The notes below the pieces were generated by a model. It saw only the letters and a list, made by a program, of their open reading frames with translations, did not search any database and was not told the DNA's origin. A stretch of 64,000 nucleotides of DNA, from NCBI GenBank assembly GCA_964441745.1, contig CAYTYR010000012.1:1-64000 (forward strand). Direction: 5' to 3'. The position numbers and the translations under genes were made by a program. Shown here piece after piece: positions 5,607 through 59,885 of this stretch; position 1 is the first letter of the stretch, and every line of letters begins with the position of its first letter. Source of the stretch: an uncultured Clostridia bacterium. GTDB lineage: Bacteria; CAYTYR01; UBA6262.

Positions 5607-5731
5607 AAGTGCGCTTATAGCATATGGCTTATTGCTTATGGCAGAAGCATTTTCGGTTTGGTCTTTGCTATAGGCTATATGCCATTCGCTATTTGCGTCT
5701 TTTTCTTTATGGCCATTTGCTATATGCTATC
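5607..5731. repeat. Palindromic heptamer-arm element, family B (empty)
   Basis: Left arm gcttata gcatatg gcttatt gcttatg gc; right arm gctatag gctatat gccattc gctattt gc plus a second right-arm unit. Confidence 0.85.
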
Positions 5732-7796
5732 AGCGCTCCTGTTTTTGCGTCTTTAATTTTCCCCACCACTGCTGATTTTCCTTATACCAGGTGATAGTGT
5801 CTTGAAGCGCCTGATTAAAATCATGTTGCGGTTTCCAGCCCAATTCACTTCTGAGCTTGAAGCAATCCAGAGCATAACGGCGGTCATGACCCAGACGGTC
5901 AGTAACTACCTTAATAAATTCATCACCCTTGCCCAACAGATCCAGGATCTTTTTAGTTAACTCAATATTAGACAGCTCATTGCTGCCCCCAATATTATAA
6001 ATCTCTCCTGTTTTTCCTTTATGCATCACCTGGTCGATAGCCTCGCAATTATCCAGCACATAAACCCAATCACGTACATTCTTGCCATCACCATAAAGAG
6101 GCACTGGTTTGTCTTCCAGGATATTGGTAATAAAAAGAGGCATTACTTTTTCCGGGAACTGGTATGGCCCAAAATTATTGCTGGAACGAGTGATGATTAC
6201 TGGCAACTGGTAGGTAGTATAATACGACATAGCCAATAGGTCCGCGCTCGCTTTAGAAGCTGAATATGGGCTTGAAGGCTTCAGGTTATCAGCTTCTTTG
6301 AATGCCCCTTTTTCGATAGATCCGTAAACTTCATCCGTATTACCACAAAAATCAAATCTACCATTCCTTTCCACTAAAAAATTTTTATTATCTTTGACTT
6401 TCAAGCACCAGACATCTCCATTATAATCAACTATTTTATTTCTATGACGGCTTATTGATTTAGTAGTATTAGCAATGAAAATATAATATGCACTACCCTC
6501 TATCTTTCTTCCATCTATAAAAGATGTTGTGTATCTGTTGTGTATGCTTGGTTTAAGATTTAACTTTATGCAAAGTTCACAAATATCCGCAACCAATTTT
6601 TTAGAAACAGTATGGTATATAACTCCGCGAGAACCATCAGCATCCAATAAGCCTTCCAATAAATGTTTTAAGTATTTTGGTGAATAATCTAATGCCCATC
6701 GAGGAATATGTTTATTATATGCTCCTTTCCCACATTGAGCAAAAAACTCCATAAATATTTTTGAAGTAAAATACAAATGCGTACCTGCTTTCCCTTGGTG
6801 ATAATGATATTTTATGCCTAAATTACACAAAGCCTCTTCAACCTTTTTGCGGCATTTATCATTTTCTGGGATATCAAAAAATATTCTATAGCTATGGCAT
6901 GTGGATTTATGGTTATCTTGCTTCTCTATTTTTTTAAATCTACCGTTAATTATATCTCTTGAATTTTTGAGAAATTCTTCTCTTGCTAAACCTGTTTTTG
7001 TCTCAACTTCCTTTTCCTGATAAGCAATAAATCCATCGCCAATAAAAACACCCAAAATATACATTAAATCTTTTGTTTTAACTTTCCCATAACCTCTTAT
7101 ATTAAAATGTTTTTTACTTTTACCCTTCCAATAGCCTTCTGGCATATAAAATATACTTCTTTTTGAAGAATTTTCAGCAATCTCAATAATTAATTTCTTT
7201 TTAGTATTAAAAATAAACATATTATGATTAGGAGTTACAAGTAAATCAATTCGTTGATTATTAAAATGAATCATTTTCCCCTTATAAGGTTGAACAATAA
7301 CTTTTTCAATAGGTTTAATCTCTATTTCTTGCGTAACAGGATTCAGTGAAAAAACAAGATCTCCATCCTGTAATTCTTTATATGTCTTTATTCCCTCTGT
7401 AGTTAAAGCTCTTGTTTTTTCATCATAACAACTAACCTGGATATATTTGCCGATATTATTCTTCTTAGCCGCTTCCAACAAGGTATAGGTCCCGAACACG
7501 TTGGTCTTAACAAAATCTCCCGCATTGACGATAGAACGGTCAACATGGGTTTCCGCGGCAAAATTAACAATAATCTGGGCTTTTTTGACGCATTTAGCGA
7601 CTATTTTCGGATCAGCGATATCTCCTTTGACAAATTCATACCGTTTGTTTTTTTCCAGATCCGCCAGATTTTCCAGATTTCCCGCGTAAGTTAATTTGTC
7701 CAAATTAATAATTTCATAATCAGGATATTTTTTCAGCATCTGCCTGATAAAATTAGATCCGATAAAACCCGCCCCGCCTGTCACTAAAATCTTCAC
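5730..7796 (-). CDS. rfbB: dTDP-glucose 4,6-dehydratase precursor containing an intein
   Basis: TGGAGFIGS, AAETHVDRS, VS|TDEVYG split by a 364-aa insert, YSASKA, DRLGHDRRY; 324 aa after removing the insert. Confidence 0.95.
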   Translation of the reverse strand: MKILVTGGAGFIGSNFIRQMLKKYPDYEIINLDKLTYAGNLENLADLEKNKRYEFVKGDIADPKIVAKCVKKAQIIVNFAAETHVDRSIVNAGDFVKTNVFGTYTLLEAAKKNNIGKYIQVSCYDEKTRALTTEGIKTYKELQDGDLVFSLNPVTQEIEIKPIEKVIVQPYKGKMIHFNNQRIDLLVTPNHNMFIFNTKKKLIIEIAENSSKRSIFYMPEGYWKGKSKKHFNIRGYGKVKTKDLMYILGVFIGDGFIAYQEKEVETKTGLAREEFLKNSRDIINGRFKKIEKQDNHKSTCHSYRIFFDIPENDKCRKKVEEALCNLGIKYHYHQGKAGTHLYFTSKIFMEFFAQCGKGAYNKHIPRWALDYSPKYLKHLLEGLLDADGSRGVIYHTVSKKLVADICELCIKLNLKPSIHNRYTTSFIDGRKIEGSAYYIFIANTTKSISRHRNKIVDYNGDVWCLKVKDNKNFLVERNGRFDFCGNTDEVYGSIEKGAFKEADNLKPSSPYSASKASADLLAMSYYTTYQLPVIITRSSNNFGPYQFPEKVMPLFITNILEDKPVPLYGDGKNVRDWVYVLDNCEAIDQVMHKGKTGEIYNIGGSNELSNIELTKKILDLLGKGDEFIKVVTDRLGHDRRYALDCFKLRSELGWKPQHDFNQALQDTITWYKENQQWWGKLKTQKQER
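6339..7430 (-). mobile_element. Intein with LAGLIDADG homing endonuclease in rfbB
   Basis: Starts CYDEKT, block B VTPNH, LAGLIDADG-like ILGVFIGDG and LLEGLLDADG, block F VWCLKV, ends CGN followed by Thr; visibly more AT-rich than the flanks. Confidence 0.93.
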
Positions 7797-13791: not shown

Positions 13792-13878
13792 TAAAATACA
13801 AATTCTAAATTACAAATTCTAAATTCGAAATTAATAGCATTAAATCGGTGTAATCTCTTTTTGTAATCGGTGTAATCT
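13792..13878. repeat. Family C heptamer array followed by two AATCGGTGTAATC (family E) units
   Basis: aaataca aattcta aattaca aattcta aattcga aatt; then aatcggtgtaatc twice. Confidence 0.75.
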
Positions 13879-13882
13879 TTTT

Positions 13883-15001
13883 CTAAATGATGGTTTTTTC
13901 CGTCTCCGCGTCAAAGATATGGATCTTGTTCATATTAAAGACCACTTCCAGGTCTTTTTCCACTTCTGCTTTCACATGTGAATCAAGTTTGGCCAGGAAC
14001 AGATTATTACCAGTGGATAGATGGACATTTAACTCGCTTCCCATCGGCTCGATCACATCTACTTTCATCTTGACCGGGCAACAACCAGGGATACTGCGGG
14101 CAAAGAATTTGTCGTAAATATCTTCCGGCCGGATTCCGAACACTACCTTCTTATCTACACAGTTTACCAACAGGTCTGAGATCGGGCTGTTGATCTTCAA
14201 GCTGAGTTTGCCTTCTTCCAGGTACAAACCATCACCTTTTTTCACTACGGTGCATTCTATGAAGTTCATCGGAGGACTGCCGATAAAGCCAGCCACAAAT
14301 TTATTCACTGGTTTATCATAAAGAGTCAAAGGATCAGCTATTTGCTGGATCAAACCGTCTTTCATGACGACGATCCTGTCACCCATAGTCATGGCTTCGA
14401 TCTGGTCGTGGGTTACATAGATAATGGTGGCATCCAGCTTGCGGTGTATTTTCTTAATTTCAGTCCGCATCTGCACCCGCAGTTTAGCATCCAGGTTACT
14501 GAGAGGTTCATCAAATAAAAACACTTTCGGCCTTCTGACAATAGCCCGGCCGACAGCTACTCGCTGTCTTTGTCCCCCTGACAGCGCTTTTGGCTTCCGG
14601 TTCAAGAGATGGGTAATGCTCAATATCTCGGCAGCTTCTTCCACTCTTTGTTTGATCTCATTTTTAGGCAATTTACGCAGTTTCAGGCCAAATGCCATAT
14701 TATTAAAAACAGTCATGTGCGGATACAGGGCATAGTTCTGGAAAACCATGGCAATGTTCCGGTCCTTGGGCTGCATATTATTGACCATCGTATCACCGAT
14801 CCAGATCTCTCCTTCAGTAGACTCTTCCAATCCTGCGACCATACGCAAGGTTGTGGTTTTGCCGCAGCCTGAAGGACCGACAAAGATACAAAACTCCTTA
14901 TCCTTGATCTCCAGGTTAAAATCTTTTACCGCCCAGACATCTTCGCCGCTTTTTTTGCTTTTAAATAGCTTCCCTACGTGTTTTAACACTACATCAGCCA
15001 T
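13883..15001 (-). CDS. Sugar ABC transporter ATP-binding protein (MsmX/UgpC/MalK family)
   Basis: GPSGCGKT, LSGGQRQRVA, FDEPLSNLD, VTHDQ, TOBE-type C-terminus. Confidence 0.95.
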   Translation of the reverse strand: MADVVLKHVGKLFKSKKSGEDVWAVKDFNLEIKDKEFCIFVGPSGCGKTTTLRMVAGLEESTEGEIWIGDTMVNNMQPKDRNIAMVFQNYALYPHMTVFNNMAFGLKLRKLPKNEIKQRVEEAAEILSITHLLNRKPKALSGGQRQRVAVGRAIVRRPKVFLFDEPLSNLDAKLRVQMRTEIKKIHRKLDATIIYVTHDQIEAMTMGDRIVVMKDGLIQQIADPLTLYDKPVNKFVAGFIGSPPMNFIECTVVKKGDGLYLEEGKLSLKINSPISDLLVNCVDKKVVFGIRPEDIYDKFFARSIPGCCPVKMKVDVIEPMGSELNVHLSTGNNLFLAKLDSHVKAEVEKDLEVVFNMNKIHIFDAETEKTII

Positions 15002-17330: not shown

Positions 17331-17435
17331 AAGTGCGCTTATAGCTTATAGCTTATAGCTTATAGCTTATGACATTTCAATTACTGCTCGCTTCCTTGCT
17401 TTTGCCATATGCTATATGCCATTAGCCATTTGCGC
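17331..17435. repeat. Family B element (empty); right arm contains the trpA stop
   Basis: aagtgc (gcttata)x4 gcttatg ... gccatat gctatat gccatta gccattt gc. Confidence 0.9.
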
Positions 17436-18216
17436 TTTTCAAACTATGGACAAACTTGCCAACTTTCGCGACTAAATCCTTTTTCCCGATATTCTTTTCA
17501 ATGATACTGACGATCGCGCTGCCGACTATGACCCCGTCAAACCAGGCGAAAAGTTGCTGCACCTGCCGGGCATTGGAAACGCCAAAACCAACAGCAACAG
17601 GTTGTTTAATATAGCGCCTAAGTTCCCGGGCATGATTAGCAATATCCTGCGGCAAACTAGCCCTGGCTCCGGTTATACCGGTAACTGACACATAATATAC
17701 AAAACCGGCAGATTCTTTACTTATTAATCCTAATCGTTTTCCGCTGGTGAGCGGCGAAACTAAATATATTGGATCAAGATGATGTTTTTTTAGTATCCTG
17801 CCGGCTTCCCTGCCGCTTTCCGGCAATAAGTCAGGAATAATAAAGCCATCTACTCCAGACTTCACTGCCGCTTGGGCCAGTTTTTCCAAGCCAAACTGGT
17901 AAACCGGATTAAAATAGGTCATTAATAATATCGGGATCTGGCTTTTTTGCCTGATCTTGCGTACCAAGCCAAGAATGTCGCCGAGAGAAGTACCGTTTTT
18001 TAATGAACGCAGCGCGGCCCGCTGGATAGTCGGGCCATCAGCGATCGGGTCACTGAAAGGGACACCCAATTCGATAATATCTGCCCCGTTCTTCTCCAGT
18101 TCAAGAACCAGCTCGCCTGTTGCGTGCAGGGTCGGGTCTCCGGCGCAAATATAGGTGATCAGCGCCTTCTTATGCTGTTTTTTTAATTCTTTGAATTTAG
18201 CTTCAATTCGGTTCAT
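17422..18216 (-). CDS. trpA: Tryptophan synthase alpha chain
   Basis: [32 protein letters not shown] 18216 overlaps the trpB TGA. Confidence 0.96.
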
Positions 18217-19433
18217 ACGCTTGCTCTCGACGCTCGACGTTCGACGCATACTTCTTGCGTTTCCCTTCGCATGATCTGTTCCATATCTTTATCCCCGCGG
18301 CCGGAAAGGCAGACAATGATGATCTTGTTCTTATCCAGTTTGGGAGCGATTTTTTTCAAATAAGCCAAAGCGTGAGAACTCTCTAACGCCGGCAAGATGC
18401 CTTCCTGCCTGGCCAGCAGGTCAAACGCAGTCAGCGCTTCCTGGTCTGTGGCGTTGACATATTCAGCCCGGCCGGTGTATTTATAATAACTGTGCTCCGG
18501 CCCCACACCCGGATAATCCAGTCCGGCGGCAATAGAATGTGTCGGAGAAACCTGACCATTCTTATCCTGTAATAAATAAGATTTAGAACCATGCAGGATA
18601 CCGATAGTGCCTTTAGCCATAGTCGCGGCAGTATGCGGTTTGTTCACCCCTGCTCCTGCTGCTTCCACGCCGATAAATTTTACTTTTTTATCATTATAAA
18701 ACGGATAAAACAGGCCAATGGCATTACTGCCGCCATTAACGCAAGCCAGTAAATAATCAGGTAACCGCTTTTCCGCTTTTAAGATCTGCTTTTTCGCTTC
18801 CCGTCCGATCACTGTCTGCAAATCCCTGACGATCATTGGAAATGGATGCGGCCCGGCACAAGACCCCAGCATATAATGCGTCGTACGCACATTAGCCACC
18901 CAATCTCTCAGGGCCTCATTCATTGCGTCTTTCAAGGTCTGGGTACCACTGGTCACGGAAATCACTTTTGTGCCCAGTTTTTGCATCCGGTACACATTCA
19001 GTTTCTGCCGTTCTATATCCTCCGCGCCCATATAGACTTCACCCTGTAATTTAAACAAAGCAGCGACAGTAGCCACGGCTACACCATGCTGCCCGGCGCC
19101 GGTCTCGGCAATGATTCTTTTCTTCCCCATGCGTAAAGTCAGCAGGGCTTGTCCGATCGTATTGTTGATTTTATGAGCGCCGGTATGGGCCAAGTCTTCC
19201 CGTTTTAAGTAAATCTTGGCGCCGCCATACAGGCTGGTCAGGTTCCGGGCAAAATACAATGGCGTGGGACGGCCGGCATATTCCGTCAGGTAATAAGCCA
19301 GTTCTTTTTTAAAGGCGGCATTGTTCTTAACCTGGCGGTAAATTGTTTCCAACTCAGCCAGCGCCGGCATCAATGTTTCCGGCACATACTGTCCGCCAAA
19401 AGGCCCAAAATATCCATTCTTGTCTGGTAACAT
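18213..19433 (-). CDS. trpB: Tryptophan synthase beta chain (TrpB1)
   Basis: [42 protein letters not shown]. Confidence 0.97.
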
Positions 19434-19444
19434 AGTTTAAACTC

Positions 19445-19530
19445 CGCTTATGGCATATAGCTTATTGCTTATGGCAAAAACAACGATCTTTGCTTCTGCC
19501 ATCTGCCATTAGCCATACGCTAAATTGCGC
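19445..19530. repeat. Family B element (empty); contains the trpF stop
   Basis: gcttatg gcatata gcttatt gcttatg gcaaaaac...tttgcttct gccatct gccatta gccatac gcta. Confidence 0.9.
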
Positions 19531-20232: not shown

Positions 20233-21588
20233 TCAATCAACTTTTGGCAGGTGTTTCAATGCTTCTTTCACTTTTTCCGTAGGATATTCATAATCTTCCA
20301 GTTGCTTGCTGAAATATTTATCATAACTGGTCATATCAAAGTGGCCATGGCCGCTCAGGTTGAAGACGATACACTTGGCTTCATTGTTTTTCTTGCACTG
20401 CAAAGCCTCATCGATCGCCACCCTGATGGCATGGGATGATTCCGGAGCCGGGATAATGCCTTCGGTACGGGCAAACTGGACCGCTGCTTCAAAGCACGGA
20501 TTCTGGTGCACGGCCCTGGCTTCCACTAAACCGGTCTTCACGGCTAAACTTACTAATGGGGAACACCCGTGATATCTCAATCCACCGGCATGAATTCCCG
20601 GCGGCATGAAAGTATGTCCTAATGTATACATTTTTAATAAAGGGGTTAATCCGACAGTATCGCCGAAATCATAAGCGAACGGGCCTTTGGTCAGGGTCGG
20701 GCAACTATGCGGTTCAACCGCGATCATCTTAATATTCTGTCCCTTTTTCTTATCCGGGATGAAGGGGAAAGCAAAACCGCCGAAATTACTGCCGCCGCCG
20801 ACACAGGCGATCAGCACATCTGGCTTTTCTCCGGCTTTTTTCAGTTGTTCCCTGGTTTCCAACCCAATAATGGTTTGATGGAGAACCACATGGTTCAGCA
20901 CACTGCCCAGCGCATACTTGGCATCATCATGCGTGGCCGCATCTTCCACTGCTTCACTAATAGCCATACCAAGAGAGCCATTAGAATTCGGATCCTCTTT
21001 TAAAAAAGCCTTGCCGGAATTAGTCTTATCAGAAGGAGAAGCAAAAACTTCCCCACCCCAGGTTTGCATCATCAATTTGCGGTATGGTTTCTGGTCAAAA
21101 CTTACCTTGACCATATAAACCGTGCATTTCAGGTCAAAAAGACGGGTCGCAAAAGACAAAGCGCTGCCCCATTGGCCGGCGCCAGTCTCTGTACAGAGCC
21201 GCTTGATCCCGGCTTTTTTGTTATAGTAAGCTTGGGCCACAGCAGAATTTGGTTTATGACTGCCCGCCGGGCTGACACTTTCGTTTTTGTAATAGATCCT
21301 GGCCGGTGTTCCTAAGGCTTTTTCCAGGCGATGCGCCCGGACCAACGGAGTTGGCCGCCATATTTTTAATATATCGATCACTTCCTGCGGTATTTCTATC
21401 CACGGTTCCTGGGACATTTCCTGTTTGATCAGATCCATCGTGAAAATAGGCGCAAAATCAGCTGCTTCAGCCGGCTTCCCGGTCTTCGGATGTAAAGGCG
21501 GCGCTATTGGTCCCGGGAGATCCGGAGCCACATTATACCAGGCTTTCGGCATTTCACTTTCATTGAGCAAGATTTTGGTATCAGTCAT
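20233..21588 (-). CDS. TrpB-like PLP enzyme (TrpB2)
   Basis: [42 protein letters not shown]. Confidence 0.93.
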
Positions 21589-21615
21589 AGACGATACTCC
21601 TCTCAATTTGAAGAT

Positions 21616-23578: not shown

Positions 23579-23676
23579 CGCGTATGGCATATGGCTTATT
23601 GCTAATGGTTAGTTGTAATTTAAGTAGTTCTTTCAAACCAGCCTTTGCTATATGCCATAAGCTATATGCTATCTGC
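23579..23676. repeat. Family B element (empty)
   Basis: gcgtatg gcatatg gcttatt gctaatg ... gctatat gccataa gctatat gctatct gc. Confidence 0.9.
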
Positions 23677-23681
23677 TTCTT

Positions 23682-23837
23682 TTATTCTGCCGCTTCTTCC
23701 ACCAGCATGACAGGTATGCCGTCCTTGACGGGATATTTCTTGCCGCATTTCTGGCAGACTATTTTATTGTCTTTTTCCTCAACATTACCTTTACAATCAG
23801 GGCAAGCCATAATTCCCAACAAGTTTTTATCGATCAT
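23682..23837 (-). CDS. Trm112/YcaR-family small zinc-ribbon protein (51 aa, below the ORF-track cutoff)
   Basis: Hand translation MIDKNLLGIMACPDCKGNVEEKDNKIVCQKCGKKYPVKDGIPVMLVEEAAE. Confidence 0.9.
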   Translation of the reverse strand: MIDKNLLGIMACPDCKGNVEEKDNKIVCQKCGKKYPVKDGIPVMLVEEAAE

Positions 23838-23862
23838 CCAAGAGACCTTTCTCATTCGGCTT

Positions 23863-24429
23863 TTATTCGCAATGTATAAAGTTCTCCAGGATCTTCTTGC
23901 CTTCTTTGGTTAAAATTGATTCCGGGTGAAATTGTACGCCATATACGGCATATTTCTTATGCCGCAGGCCCATGATCTCTTTTTCTTTGGTTTCAGCCGT
24001 GATCTCCAGGCAGGCTGGCAGGCTTTTGCGCTCCACCAGCAAGGAATGATACCTGGTAGCTTCAAAAGGATTGTTCAAGCCACGGAATATTTCCTTACCC
24101 TTGTGGTAGATCAATGAGGTTTTGCCATGCATCAACCGGCTGGCTCTCACGATCTTACCCCCAAAAGCATAACCAATCGCCTGATGTCCAAGACAGACAC
24201 CCAGTATCGGGATCTTGCCGGCATATTCCTGGATAACTCCTACAGAAACACCAGCTTCTGCCGGTGATCCTGGTCCCGGAGAAACCACGATCTTGCCAGG
24301 CTTTAGTTTTCTAATATCAGAAACCTTGATCTCGTCGTTACGGACCACTTTCAGTTCCTGACCCAGCTCACCCAGGTATTGCACCAGGTTATAAGTAAAA
24401 GAATCATAATTATCGATCATTAGAATCAT
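23863..24429 (-). CDS. trpG: Anthranilate synthase component II (glutamine amidotransferase)
   Basis: [34 protein letters not shown]. Confidence 0.95.
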
Positions 24430-24486
24430 TGGTTCCCTCCGGTCACGCATATAGCTTATGGCATATAGCGTATGGCAAAAACTAAA

Positions 24487-24837
24487 CTAATTAAGAGAAT
24501 TTTTAAAAGATGCTATCTTCTTTACTAATAATTCGGCTTTAATATACAAATCTTGCTTTATTTCTTCCTCTATAAAGCTCATCTTCTTGGCAAAAAGTAC
24601 TAAATTAACAGTTTCAAATACTGACTTCGTAGAAATATCTAGAAAATTTCTAAAGTCCTTTTTTGAGCTTGAGCCAGAACCTTCGGCAATATTATTTGAG
24701 ATTGAAACAGCCGCTCTTCTTAATTGACTTACTAACCCATATAATTCAGAGCTTGGGAATCGTTCTGTAATTTTGTAGATCTCTGCAGCATACTCCGTTG
24801 CCATTTTCCATATATCCAAACTTTCAAACCTAAACAT
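24487..24837 (-). CDS. Four helix bundle protein (23S rRNA-IVS protein/bAvd-like family)
   Basis: FESLDIWK, FPSSELYGLVSQLRRAAVSISNNIAEG, FLDIS..S..E family signature. Confidence 0.9.
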   Translation of the reverse strand: MFRFESLDIWKMATEYAAEIYKITERFPSSELYGLVSQLRRAAVSISNNIAEGSGSSSKKDFRNFLDISTKSVFETVNLVLFAKKMSFIEEEIKQDLYIKAELLVKKIASFKNSLN

Positions 24838-24867
24838 CAATTATCCTTTATACTATTTGCTTTTCCA

Positions 24868-25207
24868 GTTCCTGCCATACGCCATTAGCTATCTGCGTTT
24901 TCTTGTTCCTGCCATACGCTATTAGCTATCTGCGTTTTCTTGTTCCTGCCATACGCCATTAGCTATCTGCGTTTTCNNNNNNNNNNNNNNNNNNNNNNNN
25001 NNNNNNNNNNNNNNNNNNNNNNNNNNNNNNNNNNNNNNNNNNNNNNNNNNNNNNNNNNNNNNNNNNNNNNNNNNNNTTAGCTATCTGCGTTTTCTTGTTC
25101 CTGCCATACGCCATTAGCTATCTGCGTTTTCCTGTTCCTGCCATACGCCATTAGCTATCTGCGTTTTCCTGTTCCTGCCATACGCCATTAGCTATAAGCC
25201 ATTCGCG
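24868..25207. repeat. 37-bp tandem repeat spanning the assembly gap
   Basis: Unit gttcctgccatacgccattagctatctgcgttttc(t/c)t starting at 24868, 24905, 24942, 25097, 25134, 25171; no spacers. Confidence 0.9.
24977..25076. other. Scaffold gap (100 N)
   Basis: Run of N inside the tandem repeat. Confidence 1.
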
Positions 25208-25211
25208 TTTA

Positions 25212-26702
25212 CTATTCTAGTCCTTGTTCTGCCATTTCCACTGCCTTTACCATAGCCCTGGCCTTATTCACTGTTTCCTGGTACTCCTTAGCCGGGTCGC
25301 TGTCTGCCACGATACCGGCTCCAGCCTGCACGTAGGCGCTGTCACCCTTGATGATTATCGTCCGGATGGTAATACAGGCATCCAGATTGCCGCTGAAAGA
25401 AAAATAGCCGACACATCCGGCATAAGGACCGCGTTTTACCGGCTCCAGTTCATCAATGATCTCCATCGCCCGGATCTTCGGCGCCCCGGATACAGTACCG
25501 GCCGGGAAACAAGCTCTTAAGACATCAAAAGAGTTTTTCCCGCGGCTCAATTTGCCGATCACATCTGAGACGATATGCTGGACATGGGAATATTTCTCAA
25601 TTACCATTAACTCCGGCACTTTAACTGTATGATAATCACAAACCCGGCCAATATCGTTTCTCCCTAAATCAACCAGCATGATATGCTCAGCCCGTTCTTT
25701 CGGGTCAGCCAACAATTGTTTTTCCAGTAAGAGGTCTTCTGCTTCTGTTTTCCCCCGTGGCCGCGTGCCGGCAATGGGCCGCACTTCTACGGTACCCTCT
25801 TCTTCACGCACCAGGATCTCCGGAGATGTGCCGACCAGGTATTCCCCGCTGCATTTCAGGAAATACATATAACTGGACGGGTTTATCCGCCGCAAAGAGC
25901 GATAAATATCAAACGGGCTGGATTTGATCTTCATTTTGAACCGCTGTGACAACACCACCTGGATAATAGCGCCGGCTTTGATATATTCTTTGGCTTTAAT
26001 GATCATGTTCTTGAAGGCAGCCAAGGTAAAATTGGATTTCATTTTCAAGGCTGGTTTTTGAAGGGGTTTATAGAGGGGGATTTCCGCTGGTTTGCGTAAC
26101 AAAGCGATCAGCTTGTCTATCTTGGCGCAGGCCTCTTTATAAACTTTTTGTTCATTTTTTTCCACATGAGCGCAGGATACTACCTTGATGGTATGATTGA
26201 CATGGTCAAAAATAAGTATCGTATCAGTGAACATGAAAACGCTATCAGCTAGTTTCAGGTCATCCGGGTTTTGATCGGTTTTTTTGAGACAAGGTTCAAA
26301 GAACCTGACTGTATCATACCCCATATACCCGACTGCCCCGCCATAAAAACGCGGCAATCCACGGTGATGCACCGGCCGGTAATCCTTCATCATTTGCTGC
26401 AGGATGGATAATGGATCCTGGCCATCCAGGTCAATGTTTTTGGCTATACCCTTACTGATAAGCCTGGCCTGGTCACCCTTTGATTCCAGAATGATGGAAG
26501 GACTGGCAGAAATAAAGGAGTATCTTCCTAATTTCTCGCCCCCTTCCACGCTTTCCAGCAGATAAGCATATTTGGCGCCTTTGGATACTTTATAAAACGC
26601 GGACACTGGTGTTTCCATATCCGCCAGGATCTCTTTGTACACTGGTATTAAGTTATTTCGCCTCGATAATCTCTTAAACTCTGTTATATTTGGGTAGTAC
26701 AT
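25212..26702 (-). CDS. trpE: Anthranilate synthase component I
   Basis: LLESVEGG, RPIAGTRPRG, EHIMLVDLGRND, PAGTVSGAPK, AGAGIVADS. Confidence 0.96.
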   Translation of the reverse strand: MYYPNITEFKRLSRRNNLIPVYKEILADMETPVSAFYKVSKGAKYAYLLESVEGGEKLGRYSFISASPSIILESKGDQARLISKGIAKNIDLDGQDPLSILQQMMKDYRPVHHRGLPRFYGGAVGYMGYDTVRFFEPCLKKTDQNPDDLKLADSVFMFTDTILIFDHVNHTIKVVSCAHVEKNEQKVYKEACAKIDKLIALLRKPAEIPLYKPLQKPALKMKSNFTLAAFKNMIIKAKEYIKAGAIIQVVLSQRFKMKIKSSPFDIYRSLRRINPSSYMYFLKCSGEYLVGTSPEILVREEEGTVEVRPIAGTRPRGKTEAEDLLLEKQLLADPKERAEHIMLVDLGRNDIGRVCDYHTVKVPELMVIEKYSHVQHIVSDVIGKLSRGKNSFDVLRACFPAGTVSGAPKIRAMEIIDELEPVKRGPYAGCVGYFSFSGNLDACITIRTIIIKGDSAYVQAGAGIVADSDPAKEYQETVNKARAMVKAVEMAEQGLE

Positions 26703-26723
26703 TTTATTCTCCAATTTTCATGT

Positions 26724-30122: not shown

Positions 30123-30134
30123 AATTTAACCCTC

Positions 30135-30210
30135 GCAAATGGCATATGGCTTATGGCATATAGTCTAAACCAAACTATTGCTTTTGCAATATGCTATAAG
30201 CTATATGCGC
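30135..30210. repeat. Family B element (empty); contains the hisB stop
   Basis: gcaaatg gcatatg gcttatg gcatata g..ctattgcttttgcaatat gctataa gctatat gc. Confidence 0.88.
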
Positions 30211-37943: not shown

Positions 37944-37960
37944 GAACTTCCTCCTCTTTT

Positions 37961-38040
37961 TAGCGGGTAGCGTTAAGCGGGTAGCGTATAGAAAATCAAC
38001 TTGCTTTTCCTATCCGCTATACGCCATACGCTATACGCTA
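37961..38040. repeat. Family A element
   Basis: tagcggg tagcgtt aagcggg tagcgta tagaaaatcaacttgcttttcc tatccgc tatacgc catacgc tatacgc ta. Confidence 0.92.
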
Positions 38041-38047
38041 TTTTATG

Positions 38048-39322
38048 TTATTTTCCATTAAACTCCATCGATTTCAGGAATTCTTTATTGGACTTTGTTT
38101 TGCGTGTTTTCTCCGAGACCAGCTCCATCGCTTCCACCACATTGAGCGGGCTGAGCACTTTCCGCAGGATCCATACTTTGTTCAGTTCTTCTTCACTAAG
38201 CAGTAATTCCTCGCGGCGGGTACCGGAGCGATTGATGTCCAGGGCTGGGAACACGCGCTTGTCCACCAGCCGGCGGTCCAGGATCATTTCCATATTGCCA
38301 GTACCCTTAAATTCTTCAAAAATAACTTCATCCATCCGGGAACCTGTTTCTACCAGCGCCGTCGCTATAATAGTTAAACTGCCCCCTTCTTCAATATTGC
38401 GGGCAGCACCGAAGAATCTTTTAGGCCTTTGCAGGGCATTGGAGTCAACGCCGCCGCTCAGGACCTTGCCGCTTGGCGGCACCGTGGCATTGTACGCCCG
38501 CGCCAGCCTGGTTATGCTGTCTAGTAATATTACCACATCTTTCTTCTGTTCGACAAGCCTTTTCGCTTTCTCTATGACCATTTCCGCTACCTGGATGTGC
38601 CGTTCGCCTGGTTCATCAAAGGTGGAAGAGATCACTTCACCTTTGACCGAGCGCTGCATATCTGTCACTTCTTCCGGCCGTTCGTCGATCAAAAGCACGA
38701 TTAAGACCACTTCCGGATGGTTAGTACTGATGGCGTTGGCTATTTTTTGCAGCAGGATGGTCTTACCGGCACGCGGCGGCGAGACGATCAAACCTCTCTG
38801 CCCTTTGCCAATCGGGGTGAACATATCCATAATACGCATGGATATTTCTTCCTGCTTAGTTTCCAGCGTAAGCTTAGCTTGCGGATAAAGCGGGGTCAGG
38901 TTATCAAATAAGATCCTTTTCTTTATATCATCCGGGTTAGCGCCGTTAACAGCTTCGATCTTGAGCAAGGCAAAATACCGCTCGCCTTCCTTGGGCGGGC
39001 GTACTTGGCCGCTGATAGTATCGCCTTTACGCAGGTCAAACCGGCGGATCTGGCTGGGAGAGACATAAATATCATCCGGCCCAGATAAATAGTTATACTG
39101 GGGAGAACGTAAAAAACCAAAGCCATCTGGTAATATCTCCAGGGTGCCTTCGTCAAACACCAGGCCATTCTTCTCAGTCTGTGCCTGCAGGATCTTAAAG
39201 ATGATCTCCTGCTTTTTCAGTCCGCTGACTGATTCAAGCTTTAGTTCTTTGGCTATGTCCGTCAAATCGGATATAGTCTTTTTTCCCAAGGCAGCCATAT
39301 CTAAAGCGGCGCCATTTTCCAT
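38048..39322 (-). CDS. rho: Transcription termination factor Rho
   Basis: [37 protein letters not shown]. Confidence 0.98.
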
Positions 39323-40096: not shown

Positions 40097-40173
40097 GCGG
40101 ATAGCGTTTAGCGGGTAGCGTATAGAAAATCAATTGCTCTTCCTATCCGCTATACGCCATACGCTATACGCTA
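40097..40173. repeat. Family A element
   Basis: Arms identical to the reverse complement of 50613-50691. Confidence 0.92.
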
Positions 40174-40176
40174 AAA

Positions 40177-40998
40177 TTATTTCTGGCATTTCGGGCAATA
40201 GTGGGTGCCGCGGCCGGCAACAACGATTCGCTTAATCTCCCCCTTGCACCTCAGACACTTATTCCCCTTCTTGCCATATACCTTCAAGTGATTCTGAAAA
40301 TCCCCGCCTTGGCCTTCTGGAGTAGTAAAATTCACTACAGTTGTTCCGCAAAATTCAATGGCTTTGGCCAGGATTTTCCTGATCGCTTCAAAAATCCGCT
40401 TTTTTTCAGCTGTTCTCAGCCGGTTCGCCGGCCGATTAGGACTGACTCCGGCAGCATACAATACTTCATCTACATATATATTGCCCAAACCAGCTACTAC
40501 CTGCTGGTTTAAAAGTACTACTTTGATCTTGCCCTTATTTCTGGCCAGTGCCTGGCTGAACTCCTGGAAAACAAATTTATCTTCCAATGGTTCTGGTCCC
40601 AGTTTCATGATCGGTTTAAAGCATTCCATATTTTTAGAATCGATCAGCCACACTTTCCCGAATTTCCTGATATCTGAATAGACCATTTCCAGGCCACCGG
40701 AGAGCTGGAAGATAAGATGCATGAATTTATTTTTCTCTATTTTTGGCCCGACCAGCCAGTGTCCGGTCATCCGCAGGTGCGATACCATTATTTTACCGCC
40801 GCTTAAATGAAAGAGCAGGAATTTTCCCCGGCGGGACATTGATTCTATTTTCTTCCCAATAATATCTTCACGAAATGTTTTAAAAACAGGATACGCAACT
40901 ATTTTCTCAAAGTTACTTTCAACTTTTAGTATGGCCTTACCTAATATTTTCCTGGACAGGGCTCTTTTTACTGTTTCCACTTCCGGCAGTTCAGGCAT
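40177..40998 (-). CDS. mutM: Formamidopyrimidine-DNA glycosylase
   Basis: MPELPEVE, RRGK, HLRMTG, GLGNIY, C-terminal zinc finger. Confidence 0.97.
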   Translation of the reverse strand: MPELPEVETVKRALSRKILGKAILKVESNFEKIVAYPVFKTFREDIIGKKIESMSRRGKFLLFHLSGGKIMVSHLRMTGHWLVGPKIEKNKFMHLIFQLSGGLEMVYSDIRKFGKVWLIDSKNMECFKPIMKLGPEPLEDKFVFQEFSQALARNKGKIKVVLLNQQVVAGLGNIYVDEVLYAAGVSPNRPANRLRTAEKKRIFEAIRKILAKAIEFCGTTVVNFTTPEGQGGDFQNHLKVYGKKGNKCLRCKGEIKRIVVAGRGTHYCPKCQK

Positions 40999-41440: not shown

Positions 41441-41449
41441 AATAACCTC

Positions 41450-41585
41450 AAATTCTAAATTCTAATATCGAAATCCTAAACAATTTCAAAATCATAAATT
41501 TGAATATCTAAACAAGGACTTACTTGGTTTTGAAATTAATATATTAGAAATTGTTTAGAGTTTAGAAATTAGTGCTTCGTATTTG
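41450..41585. repeat. Family C palindromic element
   Basis: aaattct aaattct aatatcg aaatcct aaacaattt ... aaattgttt agagttt agaaatt agtgctt cgtattt. Confidence 0.8.
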
Positions 41586-41588
41586 TTC

Positions 41589-44249
41589 TTAATTTAGGTC
41601 TCTCCAGTTCGGGCCAGCGCTGACATTAGCTTCTAAAGGCACATCCAATTTTAGGGCTGTTTCCATTTCCTGTTTGATCATTTTTTCTAATTGCTTAACT
41701 TCGGCCTGAGGCGCTTCAAAGATCAGTTCATCATGAACTTGCAAGAGCATTTTAGATTGGAATTTTTCAAGTTTAAGTTTTTTATCTATATTAATCATCG
41801 CCAGCTTAATAATATCCGCCGCTGTTCCCTGGATCGGCATATTGATCGCTACCCGCTCGGCAAAGGAACGGATATTCCTGTCCTTGGCATTTATTTCCGG
41901 CAGATATCTCCGGCGGTTCAACAAGGTCGTGACAAAACCGTCATGCCTGGCTTTTTCCACGATCTTTTCCATATATTCTTTCACCCCACTGAAGCGGGCA
42001 AAGTATTTATCAATGTAATCCTTGGCAGTGGCGGCATCTATACCCAGCGCCTGGGATAAGCCGTACGGACTCATGCCATAGGACAGTCCAAAGTTCACCG
42101 TCTTGGCAATGCGCCGTTTTTCGTCATCCACCTCTTCCGGTTTCAAGCCGAATATTTCGCAGGCTGTATGGCTATGGATATCTTCATGGTTATGGAAAGC
42201 CTTTTTCATCTGCTCATCACCAGACATATGCGCCAATACCCGCAAGTCGATCTGCGAGTAATCAGCAGACACAAAGATACACCCCTCTTTGGGGATAAAC
42301 GAACGCCTGATGGACCGCCCTATTTCTGTACGGATCGGTATATTCTGCAGGTTCGGCTCGCTGGAGGACAATCTACCGGTTGTCGTCACGGTTTGGTTAA
42401 ACGAAGTATGCAGCCGGCCGGTTTTTGGATTGATCATCTCCGGTATCGGGTCGATGTAGGTGGATTTAAGCTTGGCCAATTCCCGGTACTCAATTATTCT
42501 CTTAGGCAGTTCATGCATGTTTTGCAGTTGGCGCAGGACTGATTCATTGGTTGACGCGCCGGTTTTAGTTTTTTCTATTATGGGCAGTCCTAATTTTTCA
42601 AAAAGTATCTTGGAAAGTTGCTGGGGTGAGTTAATATTAAACTCAGTCTCAGCTATTTTATAAATCACTTGCTCCAAAGTGGTAATTTTTCCATCGATCT
42701 CTTTGGATAATTCTTTCAGGTATGGCAAATCCACCAGGATCCCGGCATATTCCATCTCTGCCAGGATCTCTAGTACTGGCATCTCCACATCATAGAACAG
42801 TTTGTCCAATCCTTTTTCTGTCATCATCCCGGACAATTTTTGCTGCAACCGCCAAACCATATCCACCTGGGCACAGGCATATTCGCCTACTCTTTCCACC
42901 GGTACCTGATCCATAGTGATTTGCTTGGCCCCTTTGCCGATCAAGTCTGTGATCGGGATCATCTTGTATTGCATATATTCGGCAGAAATGTCTTCCAGGC
43001 TATGGTTGAGTTTGGACGGATTAATCAGGTAAGAGGCAATCATAGTATCAAAAGAGATACCGTTCAATATTAATCCTTCATTTTTCAGGACCAACAGGTC
43101 ATATTTCAGGTTTTGTCCGTACTTCTTTATCTTTTCTTCTTCAATAATAGGCTGGAGCAGGTCCAATACTCTTTTCTTATCCTGGACCGGAGCGCCCAGA
43201 TAGCTGTGCGCTACAGGTATATAATAGGCTTTCTTTTCCTCATGACAAAGCACGATACCTACTATCTTCGCCAGCATTGGCTCGCTGTTATTAGTCTCCA
43301 GATCAATGGATACTTCTTTTTTGTGTTTTATCGTATCAATGATCTTGGCCAACTCAGCCAGGTCAGTAACAACTTTGTAGGATGCATCTTTTTCCGCGCT
43401 CTGGTCGATTAATTCTGTAGTGAGAGATTTAAATTCATATTTACTAAACAAGGCCAGGGCTTTTTCCTGATCCAGCGGGACAGGTTTCAGATCCTCTAAG
43501 GTAAATTTAAGCGGTACATTTTCCACCAGGGTCACCAGTTCTTTTGATTTAAATGCCAGTTCCCGGCCAGCTTCCATTCTATTCTTCACTTTAGCTGGCA
43601 TCTGATCCAGGCGCTCATACATATTTTCAATGGTCCCGTATTCTTTTACTAGCTGTAAAGCTGTCTTTTCGCCTATCCCTGGGACCCCCGGTATATTATC
43701 GCTCGAATCGCCGCACAGGCCTAAATAATCCTTGATCTTATCCGCGCTAAATCCGAATTTTTCCTGTACTTCTTTACCTGTAAAAAGGATCCCCTTAGGT
43801 TCACTCAGTACTTTGATATTTTCATCTACTAGTTGGAGGATATCCTTATCCCCGCTGACGATCACCACATCCACATCCTGCTTTTCCGCCTGCCGGGCAA
43901 TAGTAGCGATCAGGTCATCAGCTTCATAGCCAGGCATCCGGAAAACCGGAATCTTAAAAGCTTCTACCATTTCCTGGACCATGGGTATCTGGGTTTTGAG
44001 CTCATCAGGAGTTTCCTTGCGGGTAGCCTTATACTGTTCAAAAGCTTTATGCCGGAAAGTCGGATGCGGGGAATCAAAGCAAACTGCCAAATAATCAGGC
44101 TGTTCACGTTTGATGATCTTAAGCAGCATGCGGGTAAAACCATAGACTGCGTTGATCACCAAGCCTTGGGAATTGGTGAGCATCGGGAGGGCATGGAACG
44201 CGCGGTGAATATAGGCATGTCCATCTATGATATATAGCTTTTTTTTCAA
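41589..44249 (-). CDS. polA: DNA polymerase I
   Basis: 5'-3' exonuclease (EADD, GDSSDNIPG), 3'-5' exonuclease domain, TGRLSS.EPNLQNIP, motif A DYSQIDLR, QVHDEL. Confidence 0.98.
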   Translation of the reverse strand: MKKKLYIIDGHAYIHRAFHALPMLTNSQGLVINAVYGFTRMLLKIIKREQPDYLAVCFDSPHPTFRHKAFEQYKATRKETPDELKTQIPMVQEMVEAFKIPVFRMPGYEADDLIATIARQAEKQDVDVVIVSGDKDILQLVDENIKVLSEPKGILFTGKEVQEKFGFSADKIKDYLGLCGDSSDNIPGVPGIGEKTALQLVKEYGTIENMYERLDQMPAKVKNRMEAGRELAFKSKELVTLVENVPLKFTLEDLKPVPLDQEKALALFSKYEFKSLTTELIDQSAEKDASYKVVTDLAELAKIIDTIKHKKEVSIDLETNNSEPMLAKIVGIVLCHEEKKAYYIPVAHSYLGAPVQDKKRVLDLLQPIIEEEKIKKYGQNLKYDLLVLKNEGLILNGISFDTMIASYLINPSKLNHSLEDISAEYMQYKMIPITDLIGKGAKQITMDQVPVERVGEYACAQVDMVWRLQQKLSGMMTEKGLDKLFYDVEMPVLEILAEMEYAGILVDLPYLKELSKEIDGKITTLEQVIYKIAETEFNINSPQQLSKILFEKLGLPIIEKTKTGASTNESVLRQLQNMHELPKRIIEYRELAKLKSTYIDPIPEMINPKTGRLHTSFNQTVTTTGRLSSSEPNLQNIPIRTEIGRSIRRSFIPKEGCIFVSADYSQIDLRVLAHMSGDEQMKKAFHNHEDIHSHTACEIFGLKPEEVDDEKRRIAKTVNFGLSYGMSPYGLSQALGIDAATAKDYIDKYFARFSGVKEYMEKIVEKARHDGFVTTLLNRRRYLPEINAKDRNIRSFAERVAINMPIQGTAADIIKLAMINIDKKLKLEKFQSKMLLQVHDELIFEAPQAEVKQLEKMIKQEMETALKLDVPLEANVSAGPNWRDLN

Positions 44250-44278
44250 GGTCGGGACCTCATTGTCTTTTTCCGTGT

Positions 44279-44491
44279 ATCAGTGAACTGTCACTATTTG
44301 TTCGCTCCGGTGTCGGTTTCCATGTCCGCTCACGCGGACCTGCGCCAAAGGTCATTTGACAACTCGGTGCCTGCGCAACTCGCCCCCTGGGCTCAAACAT
44401 GCTCGGCATCCAGCAGATACCCTCGTTGTCTGCAAGCTGCTTTGGGCTGAAACACGACAAGCTCGCTCAAAATAATGACCAGTTCCCTGAT
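44279..44491. mobile_element. Putative MITE with imperfect terminal inverted repeats
   Basis: Left atcagtgaactgtcactattt; reverse complement of right end atcagggaactggtcattattt; GC-richer non-coding interior. Confidence 0.55.
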
Positions 44492-44575
44492 CTAGACATT
44501 GGATAATAGGCGAAGCGCGGCTCCGACGTAACATCGGAGAATGACTCAGCGAGACAGTGAGTCTATTTAAATTTA

Positions 44576-45388: not shown

Positions 45389-45400
45389 AGTGATTCTCCG

Positions 45401-45486
45401 TAAGCGGATAGCGTTTAGCGGGTAGCGTATAGAAAATCAACTTGCTTTTCCTATCCGCCATACGCTATACGCTTTACGCCGATTTT
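45401..45486. repeat. Family A element
   Basis: Same spacer gaaaatcaacttgcttttcc as 37961-38040. Confidence 0.92.
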
Positions 45487-50595: not shown

Positions 50596-50612
50596 TTGGA
50601 AAACCTTCAATG

Positions 50613-50691
50613 TAGCGTATAGCGTATGGCGTATAGCGGATAGGAAAGGCTCTTGATCTTCTATACGCTACCCGCTAAACGCTATCCGCTA
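50613..50691. repeat. Family A element in inverted orientation; contains the larB stop
   Basis: Reverse complement matches the arms of 40097-40173. Confidence 0.92.
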
Positions 50692-59809: not shown

Positions 59810-59828
59810 GTCTTGCTCCTCTCATTTT

Positions 59829-59885
59829 TAATCTGTGTAATCAGCTTTTTAATCTGTGTAATCAGCTTTTTAATCTGTGTAATCA
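59829..59885. repeat. Three-copy 21-bp tandem of family E unit taatctgtgtaatcagctttt
   Basis: Direct reading of the sequence. Confidence 0.9.

Follow-up and report, generated by a model that had tools for sequence, protein, structure and literature searches.

Between the tryptophan genes trpE and trpG of an uncultured Clostridia bacterium (UBA6262; assembly GCA_964441745.1) lies a small gene for a four-helix-bundle (4HB) protein, enclosed by inverted arrays of heptanucleotide repeats. The window is the whole 64,000-nucleotide (nt) stretch of contig CAYTYR010000012.1 that was analysed, and it belongs to a 2.07 Mb genome (the source genome, G000) that is 98% complete and has 44.6% G+C. All 57 window open reading frames (ORFs) of at least 90 amino acids (aa) lie on the minus strand (1-59809), in a run of housekeeping genes. 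Read along that strand, the upstream host gene trpE, encoding anthranilate synthase component I (25212-26714; Pfam Chorismate_bind, E 2.5e-96), is followed by a 37-nt tandem array (24853-25195), the 117-aa 4HB ORF (24487-24840), a repeat arm (24446-24477) and the downstream host gene trpG, encoding the anthranilate synthase glutamine amidotransferase (23863-24429; Pfam GATase, E 6e-64). The likely start of trpG is the ATG at 24429, which is preceded by GGAGGG at 24435-24440; the TrpG proteins of relatives align from residue 6-7 of the longer ORF.

The arm on the 3' side of the gene, relative to its sense strand, comprises four heptamers of the TAGCNTA/TGGCATA type with a 14-nt super-period (Tandem Repeats Finder, TRF: period 7/14, 2.2 copies of a 14-mer, 94% matches). 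On the other side, the 5' leader of the gene (24841-24871, minus strand) contains an AAAGGA ribosome-binding site and a GGAAAAGCAA-type motif, which sequence and loop comparisons found again in the loops of gene-less hairpins elsewhere in the genome. The 5'-side arm is present in at least 6.6 visible copies, each forming part of a 37-nt unit in which three heptamers are joined to a 14-nt spacer containing AGGA; the units are arranged head-to-tail (TRF period 37, 3.4 + 3.2 copies, 93-98% matches), and genome-wide TRF analysis found no other array of this kind. The best arm pair combines 24445-24482 with the outermost 5'-side copy, 25171-25208, which adjoins the trpE stop codon (38 nt, 76% complementary). 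In the predicted RNA fold of 24436-24900 the arms pair around the ORF in both the minimum-energy structure and the centroid (-105.9 kcal/mol, z -1.65). A first-pass annotation, made from the letters of the window, had described a heptamer arm and its inverted partner from 24872 around a 4HB gene; every element that it listed was recovered where it had been placed, and the partner arm is real, but its membership in the 37-nt tandem array and the adjacent scaffold gap had been overlooked.

That gap, 100 Ns at 24977-25076, lies within the 37-nt array and is bridged by no contig. Contigs from two sequencing runs end inside the array, and its short repeat contigs have a depth of 25-50x compared with 11-12x in the flanks (2-4x); the array is the cause of the gap and breaks the assembly. 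Among Logan contigs from four DNA runs covering 23600-25700, none skips the 4HB gene and none spans the array. A CRISPR reading of the 37-nt repeat was rejected, as each unit of 37 nt fills one whole period and no unique spacers separate the units. Rfam gave no matches on the window at gathering scores.

The encoded protein belongs to the PF05635/TIGR02436 family, whose members are annotated as '23S rRNA IVS' (intervening sequence) or 'S23' proteins, and has an up-down four-helix bundle. It matches PF05635 with an E of 4e-33 (114.2 bits, cut-off 33.8) and TIGR02436 with 108.3 bits (cut-off 24), and its closest solved relative is Xcc0516 (PDB 2GSC, E 4e-19). The AlphaFold model (pLDDT 96.8) places helices at residues 9-25, 36-55, 60-86 and 92-115 and superimposes on 2GSC with a TM-score of 0.92, on the Bacteroides 'S23 family' protein 2RLD with 0.78, and on 4DWL, the Avd protein of a diversity-generating retroelement (DGR), with 0.79. 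Residues Q39, R42, S46, N50 and E53 lie on a conserved helix face. The structures 2GSC and 2RLD each contain five chains. Identity to 4DWL is only 8%; the Avd equivalog model NF033474 found no match in the window protein and scored a sister copy at 39.8 bits against a cut-off of 80. The PADLOC defence families matched none of the four 4HB proteins tested, and a tblastn search of a phage collection yielded no match. At least 596 relatives were confirmed for PF05635/TIGR02436 (596 of the first 600 pattern matches listed). To our knowledge, no function has been established for any member of the family outside DGR Avd.

The arrangement of arm, gene and arm is a property of the PF05635 family across phyla. 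This was established in a survey of 80 loci, one genome per species, assembled with a scan built on a six-sequence alignment and covering Planctomycetota, Elusimicrobiota, Patescibacteria, Acidobacteriota, Bacteroidota, Firmicutes, Proteobacteria, Nitrospirota and others. Inverted matches were sought between the two 220-nt flanks of each gene, with 75 flank pairs shifted by 500 nt as controls. A score of at least 14 was reached at 53 of the 80 loci and in none of the 75 controls; at a score of at least 12 the counts were 65/80 and 3/75. A period-7 array occurs in either flank of 46 loci, and period-8 arrays in 9/80 at 76% self-match or 14/80 at 75%, compared with 2, 0, 1, 1 and 0 of 80 for periods 4, 5, 6, 9 and 10. 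Some arm signal was found at 70 of the 80 loci. The geometry, taken from 70 cassettes, is compact: the median arm measures 31 nt, equal to about 4.4 heptamer units, the 5' arm ends 23.5 nt before the start codon, and the 3' arm begins 13 nt after the stop codon. Eleven loci of a Flavobacterium type (L061, L066, L072-L075, L081, L082, L086, L103 and L110) lie between PRiA4_ORF3-like and nucleoid-associated NA37 genes; their arms are built of 8-nt units where read (L061, L082, L103), and period-8 arrays were detected in 5/11. Without these eleven loci, inverted flank matches were found at 44/69. Plasmids of cultured Calothrix, Nostoc edaphicum, Stanieria and Gemmatirosa carry both arms, giving 4/5 plasmid loci, and that of Nostoc PCC 7120 carries one. 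The cassettes lie among ordinary genes of operons, for instance leuA-leuC, ilvN-ilvC, sdhA-sdhB and pflB-pflA, and the 150 neighbouring ORFs from 77 loci of other species include no reverse transcriptase (RT), transposase or integrase. One cassette, with TAGTGGT arms, was observed between pglZ and brxL of a BREX defence operon in Thiohalocapsa halophila (L069).

The source genome itself contains seven PF05635 genes. Six of them are enclosed by inverted repeat arms, with heptamers as units in five cases and a period of 12 nt in one (C2:115658); the seventh, whose N-terminal part is short, is flanked by an array on just one side. Each cassette tends to have its own repeat unit (TAGCG-type, TAGCNTA/TGGCATA, TAGAATT in two copies, GAGTTTT, GAGTTGC and the 12-nt unit), and both arms of any one cassette are always of one family. 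PF05635 was found in 14 of 31 related genomes. Reading 24 loci from 12 of these by eye showed arms on both sides of 21, on one side of one and on neither side of two. Enrichment of flanking arms at 4HB genes, on which the first-pass proposal depended, is thus strong in the genome itself, in its relatives and across the 80 species. The protein of the C13 cassette has a 68%-identical relative in Candidatus Omnitrophota. Beside these loci we observed a conserved hairpin motif of about 50 nt, located in TAGAATT-family loops and just upstream of another 4HB gene (C2:56080-56130, C17:6225-6275, C27:20020-20070 and C2:120130-120180); the copy beside another 4HB gene gave no Rfam matches at E up to 1. 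Other long-loop arm pairs were considered as carriers of different cargo and rejected, being solo arms to the left and right of ordinary genes (HIT + DUF167, EtfB or an oxidoreductase), or adjacent heptamer hairpins that surround tRNA genes. At C9:37868-38495, HIT family and DUF167 genes stand between solo family-B arms of outward polarity that are complementary at 27/34 positions, an arrangement that may be due to chance or to rearrangement.

Read inward, the heptamers share a Y-A-G core followed by G/T-rich variable positions, and AG was found in 50 of 64 inward-read cassette heptamers compared with CT in 14 of 64. As the arms are inverted, the YAG polarity is identical on both strands. Because 36% of cassettes have C as the first letter of the core, what is conserved is not a stop codon. 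Comparison of heptamer similarity with protein identity gave a Spearman coefficient of -0.19 (Mantel p 0.001), and no correlation was seen in the reverse-complement orientation. The TAGCG-type heptamer, in equal orientation, accompanies proteins of 67-73% identity in Pirellulales, Omnitrophota and the source genome. Heptamer and protein co-diverge, showing that arms and gene are inherited together.

Comparison of orthologous junctions in sister genomes (G001 to G005) revealed the arms to be the boundaries of a unit that is gained and lost. The junction of the family-B cassette is filled in the source genome and in G004; in G003 a 258-nt internal deletion has left the two arms and, of the gene, its 3' third, and in G001, G002 and G005 the junction is a spacer of 36-67 nt with neither heptamers nor gene. 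These filled, decayed and arm-free states at one orthologous junction bear out the earlier suggestion that the arms delimit a gain/loss unit, and the G003 remnant indicates that at least some gene-less hairpins derive from cassettes. The trpE-trpG junction, named in the first-pass annotation as a place to look for such polymorphism, holds the cassette in the source genome only and differs in every sister genome examined: two have solo arrays of other families, and G004 has an unrelated 190-nt insert.

Gene-less relatives of the arms are abundant in the operon spacers of the source genome. Tandem arrays number 145 at period 7 compared with 29, 11, 26 and 2 at periods 5, 6, 8 and 9, and a laxer threshold gave 373 period-7 arrays in the genome and 11 in a mononucleotide shuffle. 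Of these 373 arrays, 317 lie outside long ORFs, and each of the four commonest heptamer groups among them (80, 49, 27 and 23 arrays) has its counterpart in the arms of a 4HB cassette. Short-loop heptamer hairpins without a gene number at least 66; none of them is inside an ORF, and most span the distance from a stop codon to the next ribosome-binding site. Period-7 arrays occupy 141 of the 1652 co-directional spacers, and 39 of the 116 that are 80-100 nt long. Eighteen aligned copies of one family (family B; families A, B and C denote heptamer families of the gene-less hairpins) have an identical order of variant heptamers and an identical loop, indicating that they are copies of one master. 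At C14:18520-18880 and C10:37800-38160, tRNA genes were observed in a row with family-A hairpins between them.

Five arm pairs enclosing a short spacer had been noticed in the window at about 5607, 17331, 19445, 23579 and 30135, and all five fold as arm, loop and arm with -24 to -41 kcal/mol. They belong to family A and lie between two rhamnose-pathway genes (5611-5696, -40.9 kcal/mol, with a 13-nt inner junction in common with the cassette), at the accD-trpA junction (17331-17435, identified by TRF as a 7-mer x4.9 with 100% matches and by its fold), at the trpB-trpF junction (19444-19525, from TRF, fold and inner-junction comparison), between trpD and a Trm112-like ORF (Pfam Trm112p; 23579-23681, -38.2 kcal/mol) and at the hisH-hisB junction (30130-30208, -37.8 kcal/mol, with an inner-junction match to the cassette). 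The suggestion that these spacers resemble the filled copy with the gene removed stands for the 10-15 nt shared at each inner junction; it does not extend to the rest of the loop, which is not shared.

Further hairpins in the window belong to family B (TAGCG-type) and family C (TAGAATT-type), and comparison with the sister genomes showed that such hairpins turn over fast between sister species. The family-B hairpin at the rho-rpmE junction (37961-38049) persists in G003 and G004; in G002 another repeat element has taken its place. That at the fpg-coaE junction (40097-40179) is inverted whole in G003 and G004 and gives way to another heptamer family in G002, and that at 45399-45480 is replaced by another heptamer family in G003 and by a non-heptamer repeat in G001. 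The long family-C hairpin at the polA junction (41449-41595) is represented by another family in G003, G004 and G005 and by 12 nt in G001 and G002. At these four junctions, with flanks 77-95% identical, the element is thus kept, inverted whole, exchanged for another heptamer family or a non-heptamer repeat, or reduced to 12 nt. A fourth family-B copy, at 50606-50691, was recognised by fold and family alignment and has the orientation opposite to those at 37961, 40097 and 45399.

Taken together, these results lead us to regard the trpE-trpG element as probably an IVS-type cassette, in which a promoter-less 4HB gene enclosed by inverted arrays of about four to five heptamers lives in the spacer of an mRNA operon. 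The nearest precedent is provided by the 23S rRNA IVSs of Coxiella and Leptospira, where the same protein family is encoded in the loop of a terminal stem of about 28-36 bp and the ORF, which has no promoter, is co-transcribed with its host gene. In Coxiella RNase III cuts the 28-bp terminal stem at the first of two to three GACAGAT heptamers (as described in PMC4990558). These tandem heptamers have a CAG core and stand just upstream of the ORF, as the arm does here. A mobile origin of IVSs was suspected long ago (Ralph and McClelland 1993, as cited in PMC4990558). Unlike those elements, the cassette described here is hosted by an mRNA operon spacer and not by an rRNA helix, its arms are composed of four to five heptamers with periodic mismatches, and many gene-less derivatives occupy other spacers. 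The 4HB gene would be expressed by read-through from trpE, and the arms would pair in the transcript to form a long stem with a period-7 pattern of mismatches around the ORF. The first-pass annotation had offered an IVS-like mRNA stem-loop as one option, a plausible one given the predicted pairing of the arms and the shared orientation of gene and operon. The genome has an RNase III gene, and cleavage of this stem by RNase III, as in the rRNA IVSs, is conceivable, if far from assured. Internal deletion, as in G003, converts a cassette into a remnant with arms, and gene-less hairpins have been dispersed in both orientations over the operon spacers.

A number of observations weigh against this interpretation, the first of which concern pairing of the arms in RNA. 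On the sense strand, G-U pairs are not in excess over A-C mismatches (122 vs 141, p 0.27), so selection on sense-RNA pairing is not visible. The two arms mirror each other's variant units only weakly (mean z 0.52, with p<0.05 in 2/35 loci). The 18 aligned family-B hairpins pair in 4-bp blocks only, with 3-nt internal loops between them and no covariation; such a structure would be a poor classical RNase III substrate, and the covariation test is uninformative here because the paired columns barely vary, showing only A-U to G-U changes. The arms are thus quasi-palindromes of one motif family and not optimised RNA helices. The survey adds its own reservations: 10 of the 80 loci have no arm signal, the 11 Flavobacterium-type loci represent a single orthologous junction and are hence not independent, and 2/5 plasmid loci lie near an annotated integrase or transposase. 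The 4HB genes are co-oriented with their neighbours in 95/109 cases upstream and 95/107 downstream, which is weak evidence because 91.5% of adjacent ORF pairs in the source genome are co-directional anyway; co-orientation of hairpins and host genes was dropped as evidence for the same reason (60/66, equal to the baseline of 91.5%). Finally, comparison with the empty sites, whose spacers have diverged, revealed no target-site duplication or precise insertion boundary.

The remaining difficulties concern the dependence of the hairpins on the protein, and they favour the reading that the hairpins are self-standing spacer elements akin to repetitive extragenic palindromes (REPs), either used by the host or selfish, with roles in mRNA processing, stability or insulation, that both spread and persist without the 4HB protein; the 4HB ORF would then be a separate selfish passenger lodging in hairpin loops, as in helices 25/45 of 23S rRNA. 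G006, a 95% complete genome of the same family, has no 4HB gene detectable by PF05635 or by a local profile, yet its period-7 arrays are the densest of those sampled (16.4 per 100 kb) and include clear heptamer hairpins. In samples of 60-100 kb, the density per 100 kb was 3.3, 8.0, 1.0, 3.0, 0 and 8.4 in six 4HB-positive genomes and 0, 0, 0, 0, 1.0 and 16.4 in six 4HB-negative ones. G018 has four 4HB genes and no arrays in the 84 kb sampled, and G012 has nine genes and 1.0 array per 100 kb. G001 and G005 contain family-B hairpins, and a family-B 4HB gene (at least 80% identity) is found in G004 only, with a remnant in G003. Absence of the gene from G006, G001 and G005 is not proven, as the assemblies are 91-95% complete and repeats break assemblies. 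The gene-less family-B hairpins stand in both orientations, 11 to 7 by whole-element alignment, a count that replaced a 9:1 sense bias obtained from the orientation of the loop motif; among gene-less hairpins in general, inward polarity is also weaker (31 inward, 13 outward and 20 without AG). Solo arms are common, the 66 short-loop pairs being found among 317 intergenic arrays, and the position of arrays in 141 of 1652 co-directional spacers, mostly between stop codon and ribosome-binding site, would suit elements of this kind. What makes such independence unlikely is that the arms travel with the gene, as seen in the TAGCG-type heptamer and in the Mantel test, that the empty orthologous sites lack both arms and gene, and that a cassette has been caught decaying into an arm-bearing remnant, so that some gene-less hairpins at least come from cassettes and not the other way round. 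The first-pass idea that the protein may bind or mobilise the repeats is accordingly the part affected by G006, G001 and G005, and its gain/loss unit bounded by arms is the part that held.

According to a second reading, the arms are terminal binding arrays for a DNA enzyme acting in trans, either a Y1 HUH transposase or a host recombinase, and the elements resemble miniature inverted-repeat transposable elements with the 4HB gene as cargo or accessory. Near-identical copies are indeed dispersed, a whole element is inverted at one junction in sister genomes, the missing sense-strand G-U bias fits a constraint at the DNA level, and the genome has 9 PF01797 matches. The Y1_Tnp genes nevertheless carry their own, different flanking repeats and no heptamers (8 places were read, two of the 9 match rows sharing one frame), no target-site duplication was seen, the neighbouring ORFs of the survey include no such enzyme, and the variation of the heptamer between cassettes of one genome would call for many enzyme specificities or for reading of the YAG core only, so that we consider this reading quite improbable. 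In the window, the reported lack of transposase or RT genes was confirmed, Pfam giving none on the 57 ORFs, and PF00078 found no reverse transcriptase in the 98%-complete genome. Pfam found no integrase among the window ORFs, the genome itself not having been searched for IntI; in an integron, moreover, each cassette has one attC, unlike the arms on both sides of the gene here. The nine Y1 HUH matches were observed in unusually long ORFs (246-334 aa) with GACCCC-type direct repeats, for example at C1:182315-183265, C1:186341-187129, C8:5393-6343 and C22:25806-26810. Least credible of all is a reading without mobility, in which polymerase slippage would generate the arrays on the spot and they would be retained as punctuation for translation or transcription, for example as stops in three frames, in spacers that 4HB genes tolerate or prefer: slippage has been proposed for heptamers, which in many bacteria are commoner than any other long simple repeat (PMC4692102, PMC4679880), their copy number is described as differing between Coxiella strains (PMC4990558), TAG-containing units are said to yield stops in every frame (PMC4679880) and the 37-nt array is a local amplification at the trpE-trpG locus, but slippage in place is at odds with 18 dispersed family-B copies sharing one order of variant units and loop, with unrelated families or an inverted element at one junction in sisters, with C at core position one in 36% of cassettes and with arms that always come from one family.

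Within the cassette reading, the role of the protein can be approached through Avd, which shares its fold and forms a barrel of five subunits that carries positive charge and binds a specific RNA element (bioRxiv 10.1101/2023.10.23.563531). Since Avd is a pentameric RNA-binding barrel and 2GSC has five chains, we propose, tentatively, that a pentameric 4HB protein may recognise the heptamer arrays, perhaps with one heptamer per subunit. The differences from Avd include the low sequence identity, the score below the equivalog model and the lack of an RT in the source genome; we know of no heptamer arms flanking Avd genes. The trp RNA-binding attenuation protein (TRAP) is an 11-subunit ring that reads (G/U)AG repeats in RNA at a period of 5-6 nt, one per subunit; its fold is unrelated to 4HB, and it serves only as a model for a pentamer reading YAG-N4 arrays at fixed spacing. 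That the protein would also help to spread or maintain its own arm family is rather doubtful. The same caution applies to the fuller proposal of a new protein-repeat partnership, a speculative one in which a 4HB ring would read one YAG-N4 (sometimes N5) unit per subunit and would underlie the spread, homogenisation or upkeep of the hairpins.

Such a partnership would recall that between REPINs and their REP-associated tyrosine transposases (RAYTs). In both cases extragenic palindromes are dispersed over operon spacers in many near-identical copies (here 66 hairpins, 18 of them aligned in family B), a single-copy gene lies between inverted copies of its own repeat, several gene-repeat pairs can coexist in a genome, and repeat populations can outlive the gene. 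In contrast to RAYTs, the gene here encodes a 117-aa helical bundle with no known nuclease motif, not an HUH Y1 enzyme, and the arms are tandem heptamers. Were the partnership real, it would amount to a symbiosis of the REPIN/RAYT kind resting on an RNA/DNA-binding barrel that lacks a nuclease, and it would account at once for what a very large family labelled 'unknown' does and for the decades-old excess of heptanucleotide repeats, among them the short tandemly repeated repetitive (STRR) sequences and their relatives.

Heptanucleotide repeats, the commonest long simple repeats in many bacteria, have had no accepted explanation so far in the accounts consulted. Those of cyanobacteria (STRR), Xanthomonas (GGGAATC) and Beggiatoaceae (TAACTGA) are described there, like the arms, as tandem, of about four units, intergenic, often in operons, transcribed and patchy in phylogeny. 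Elhai and colleagues reportedly described small dispersed repeats inside the tandem heptamers of Nostoc in 2008, which may bear on priority. Rehm (2015) reports heptamers as over-represented in Xanthomonas and Nostoc, mostly as four units, interprets them as G-quadruplexes and counts 70-75 convergent (inverted) pairs per Xanthomonas genome (PMC4692102); MacGregor (2015) describes TAACTGA repeats in Beggiatoaceae, cyanobacteria and Bacteroidetes and interprets them as translational signals (PMC4679880). The texts of these two papers do not mention the 4HB/S23 family, though their repeat-site supplements, which lie outside those texts, might show 4HB neighbours. Full-text literature searches found no paper linking PF05635 to heptamer arms, and as far as these searches reach, the link between the 4HB family and heptamer repeats is new. 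It suggests that two phenomena studied apart, the protein family and the heptanucleotide repeats, belong together, that a general arm-gene-arm cassette includes the classical 23S rRNA IVS as a special case, and that, in some lineages, operon spacers consist largely of cassette derivatives. The cassettes thereby offer a way to annotate 'hypothetical' spacers, which number in the thousands, and to make sense of assembly breaks like that at trpE-trpG.

Several other features of the window and genome were noted. A second class of spacer repeat, with units of 21-22 nt and a AATCGGTGTAATC-type core, forms 23 arrays genome-wide, including those at 13843-13886 and 59825-59885 of the window; AATCGGTGTAATC-type repeats replace heptamer hairpins in G001 and G002 at the junctions orthologous to 37955-38045 and 45395-45485. 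Downstream of polA, at 44271-44522, lies a dispersed element of about 250 nt with no Rfam match, which is present in many copies of 72-97% identity, including in all five sister genomes. The 688-aa ORF at 5733-7796 (minus strand), similar to dTDP-glucose/GDP-mannose dehydratases, is split by an insert with a weak match to an intein splicing domain (33.7 bits, just below the cut-off of 35.8). Within the trp cluster, two PALP (TrpB-like) genes, at 20236-21606 and 18216-19433, stand one on each side of trpF.

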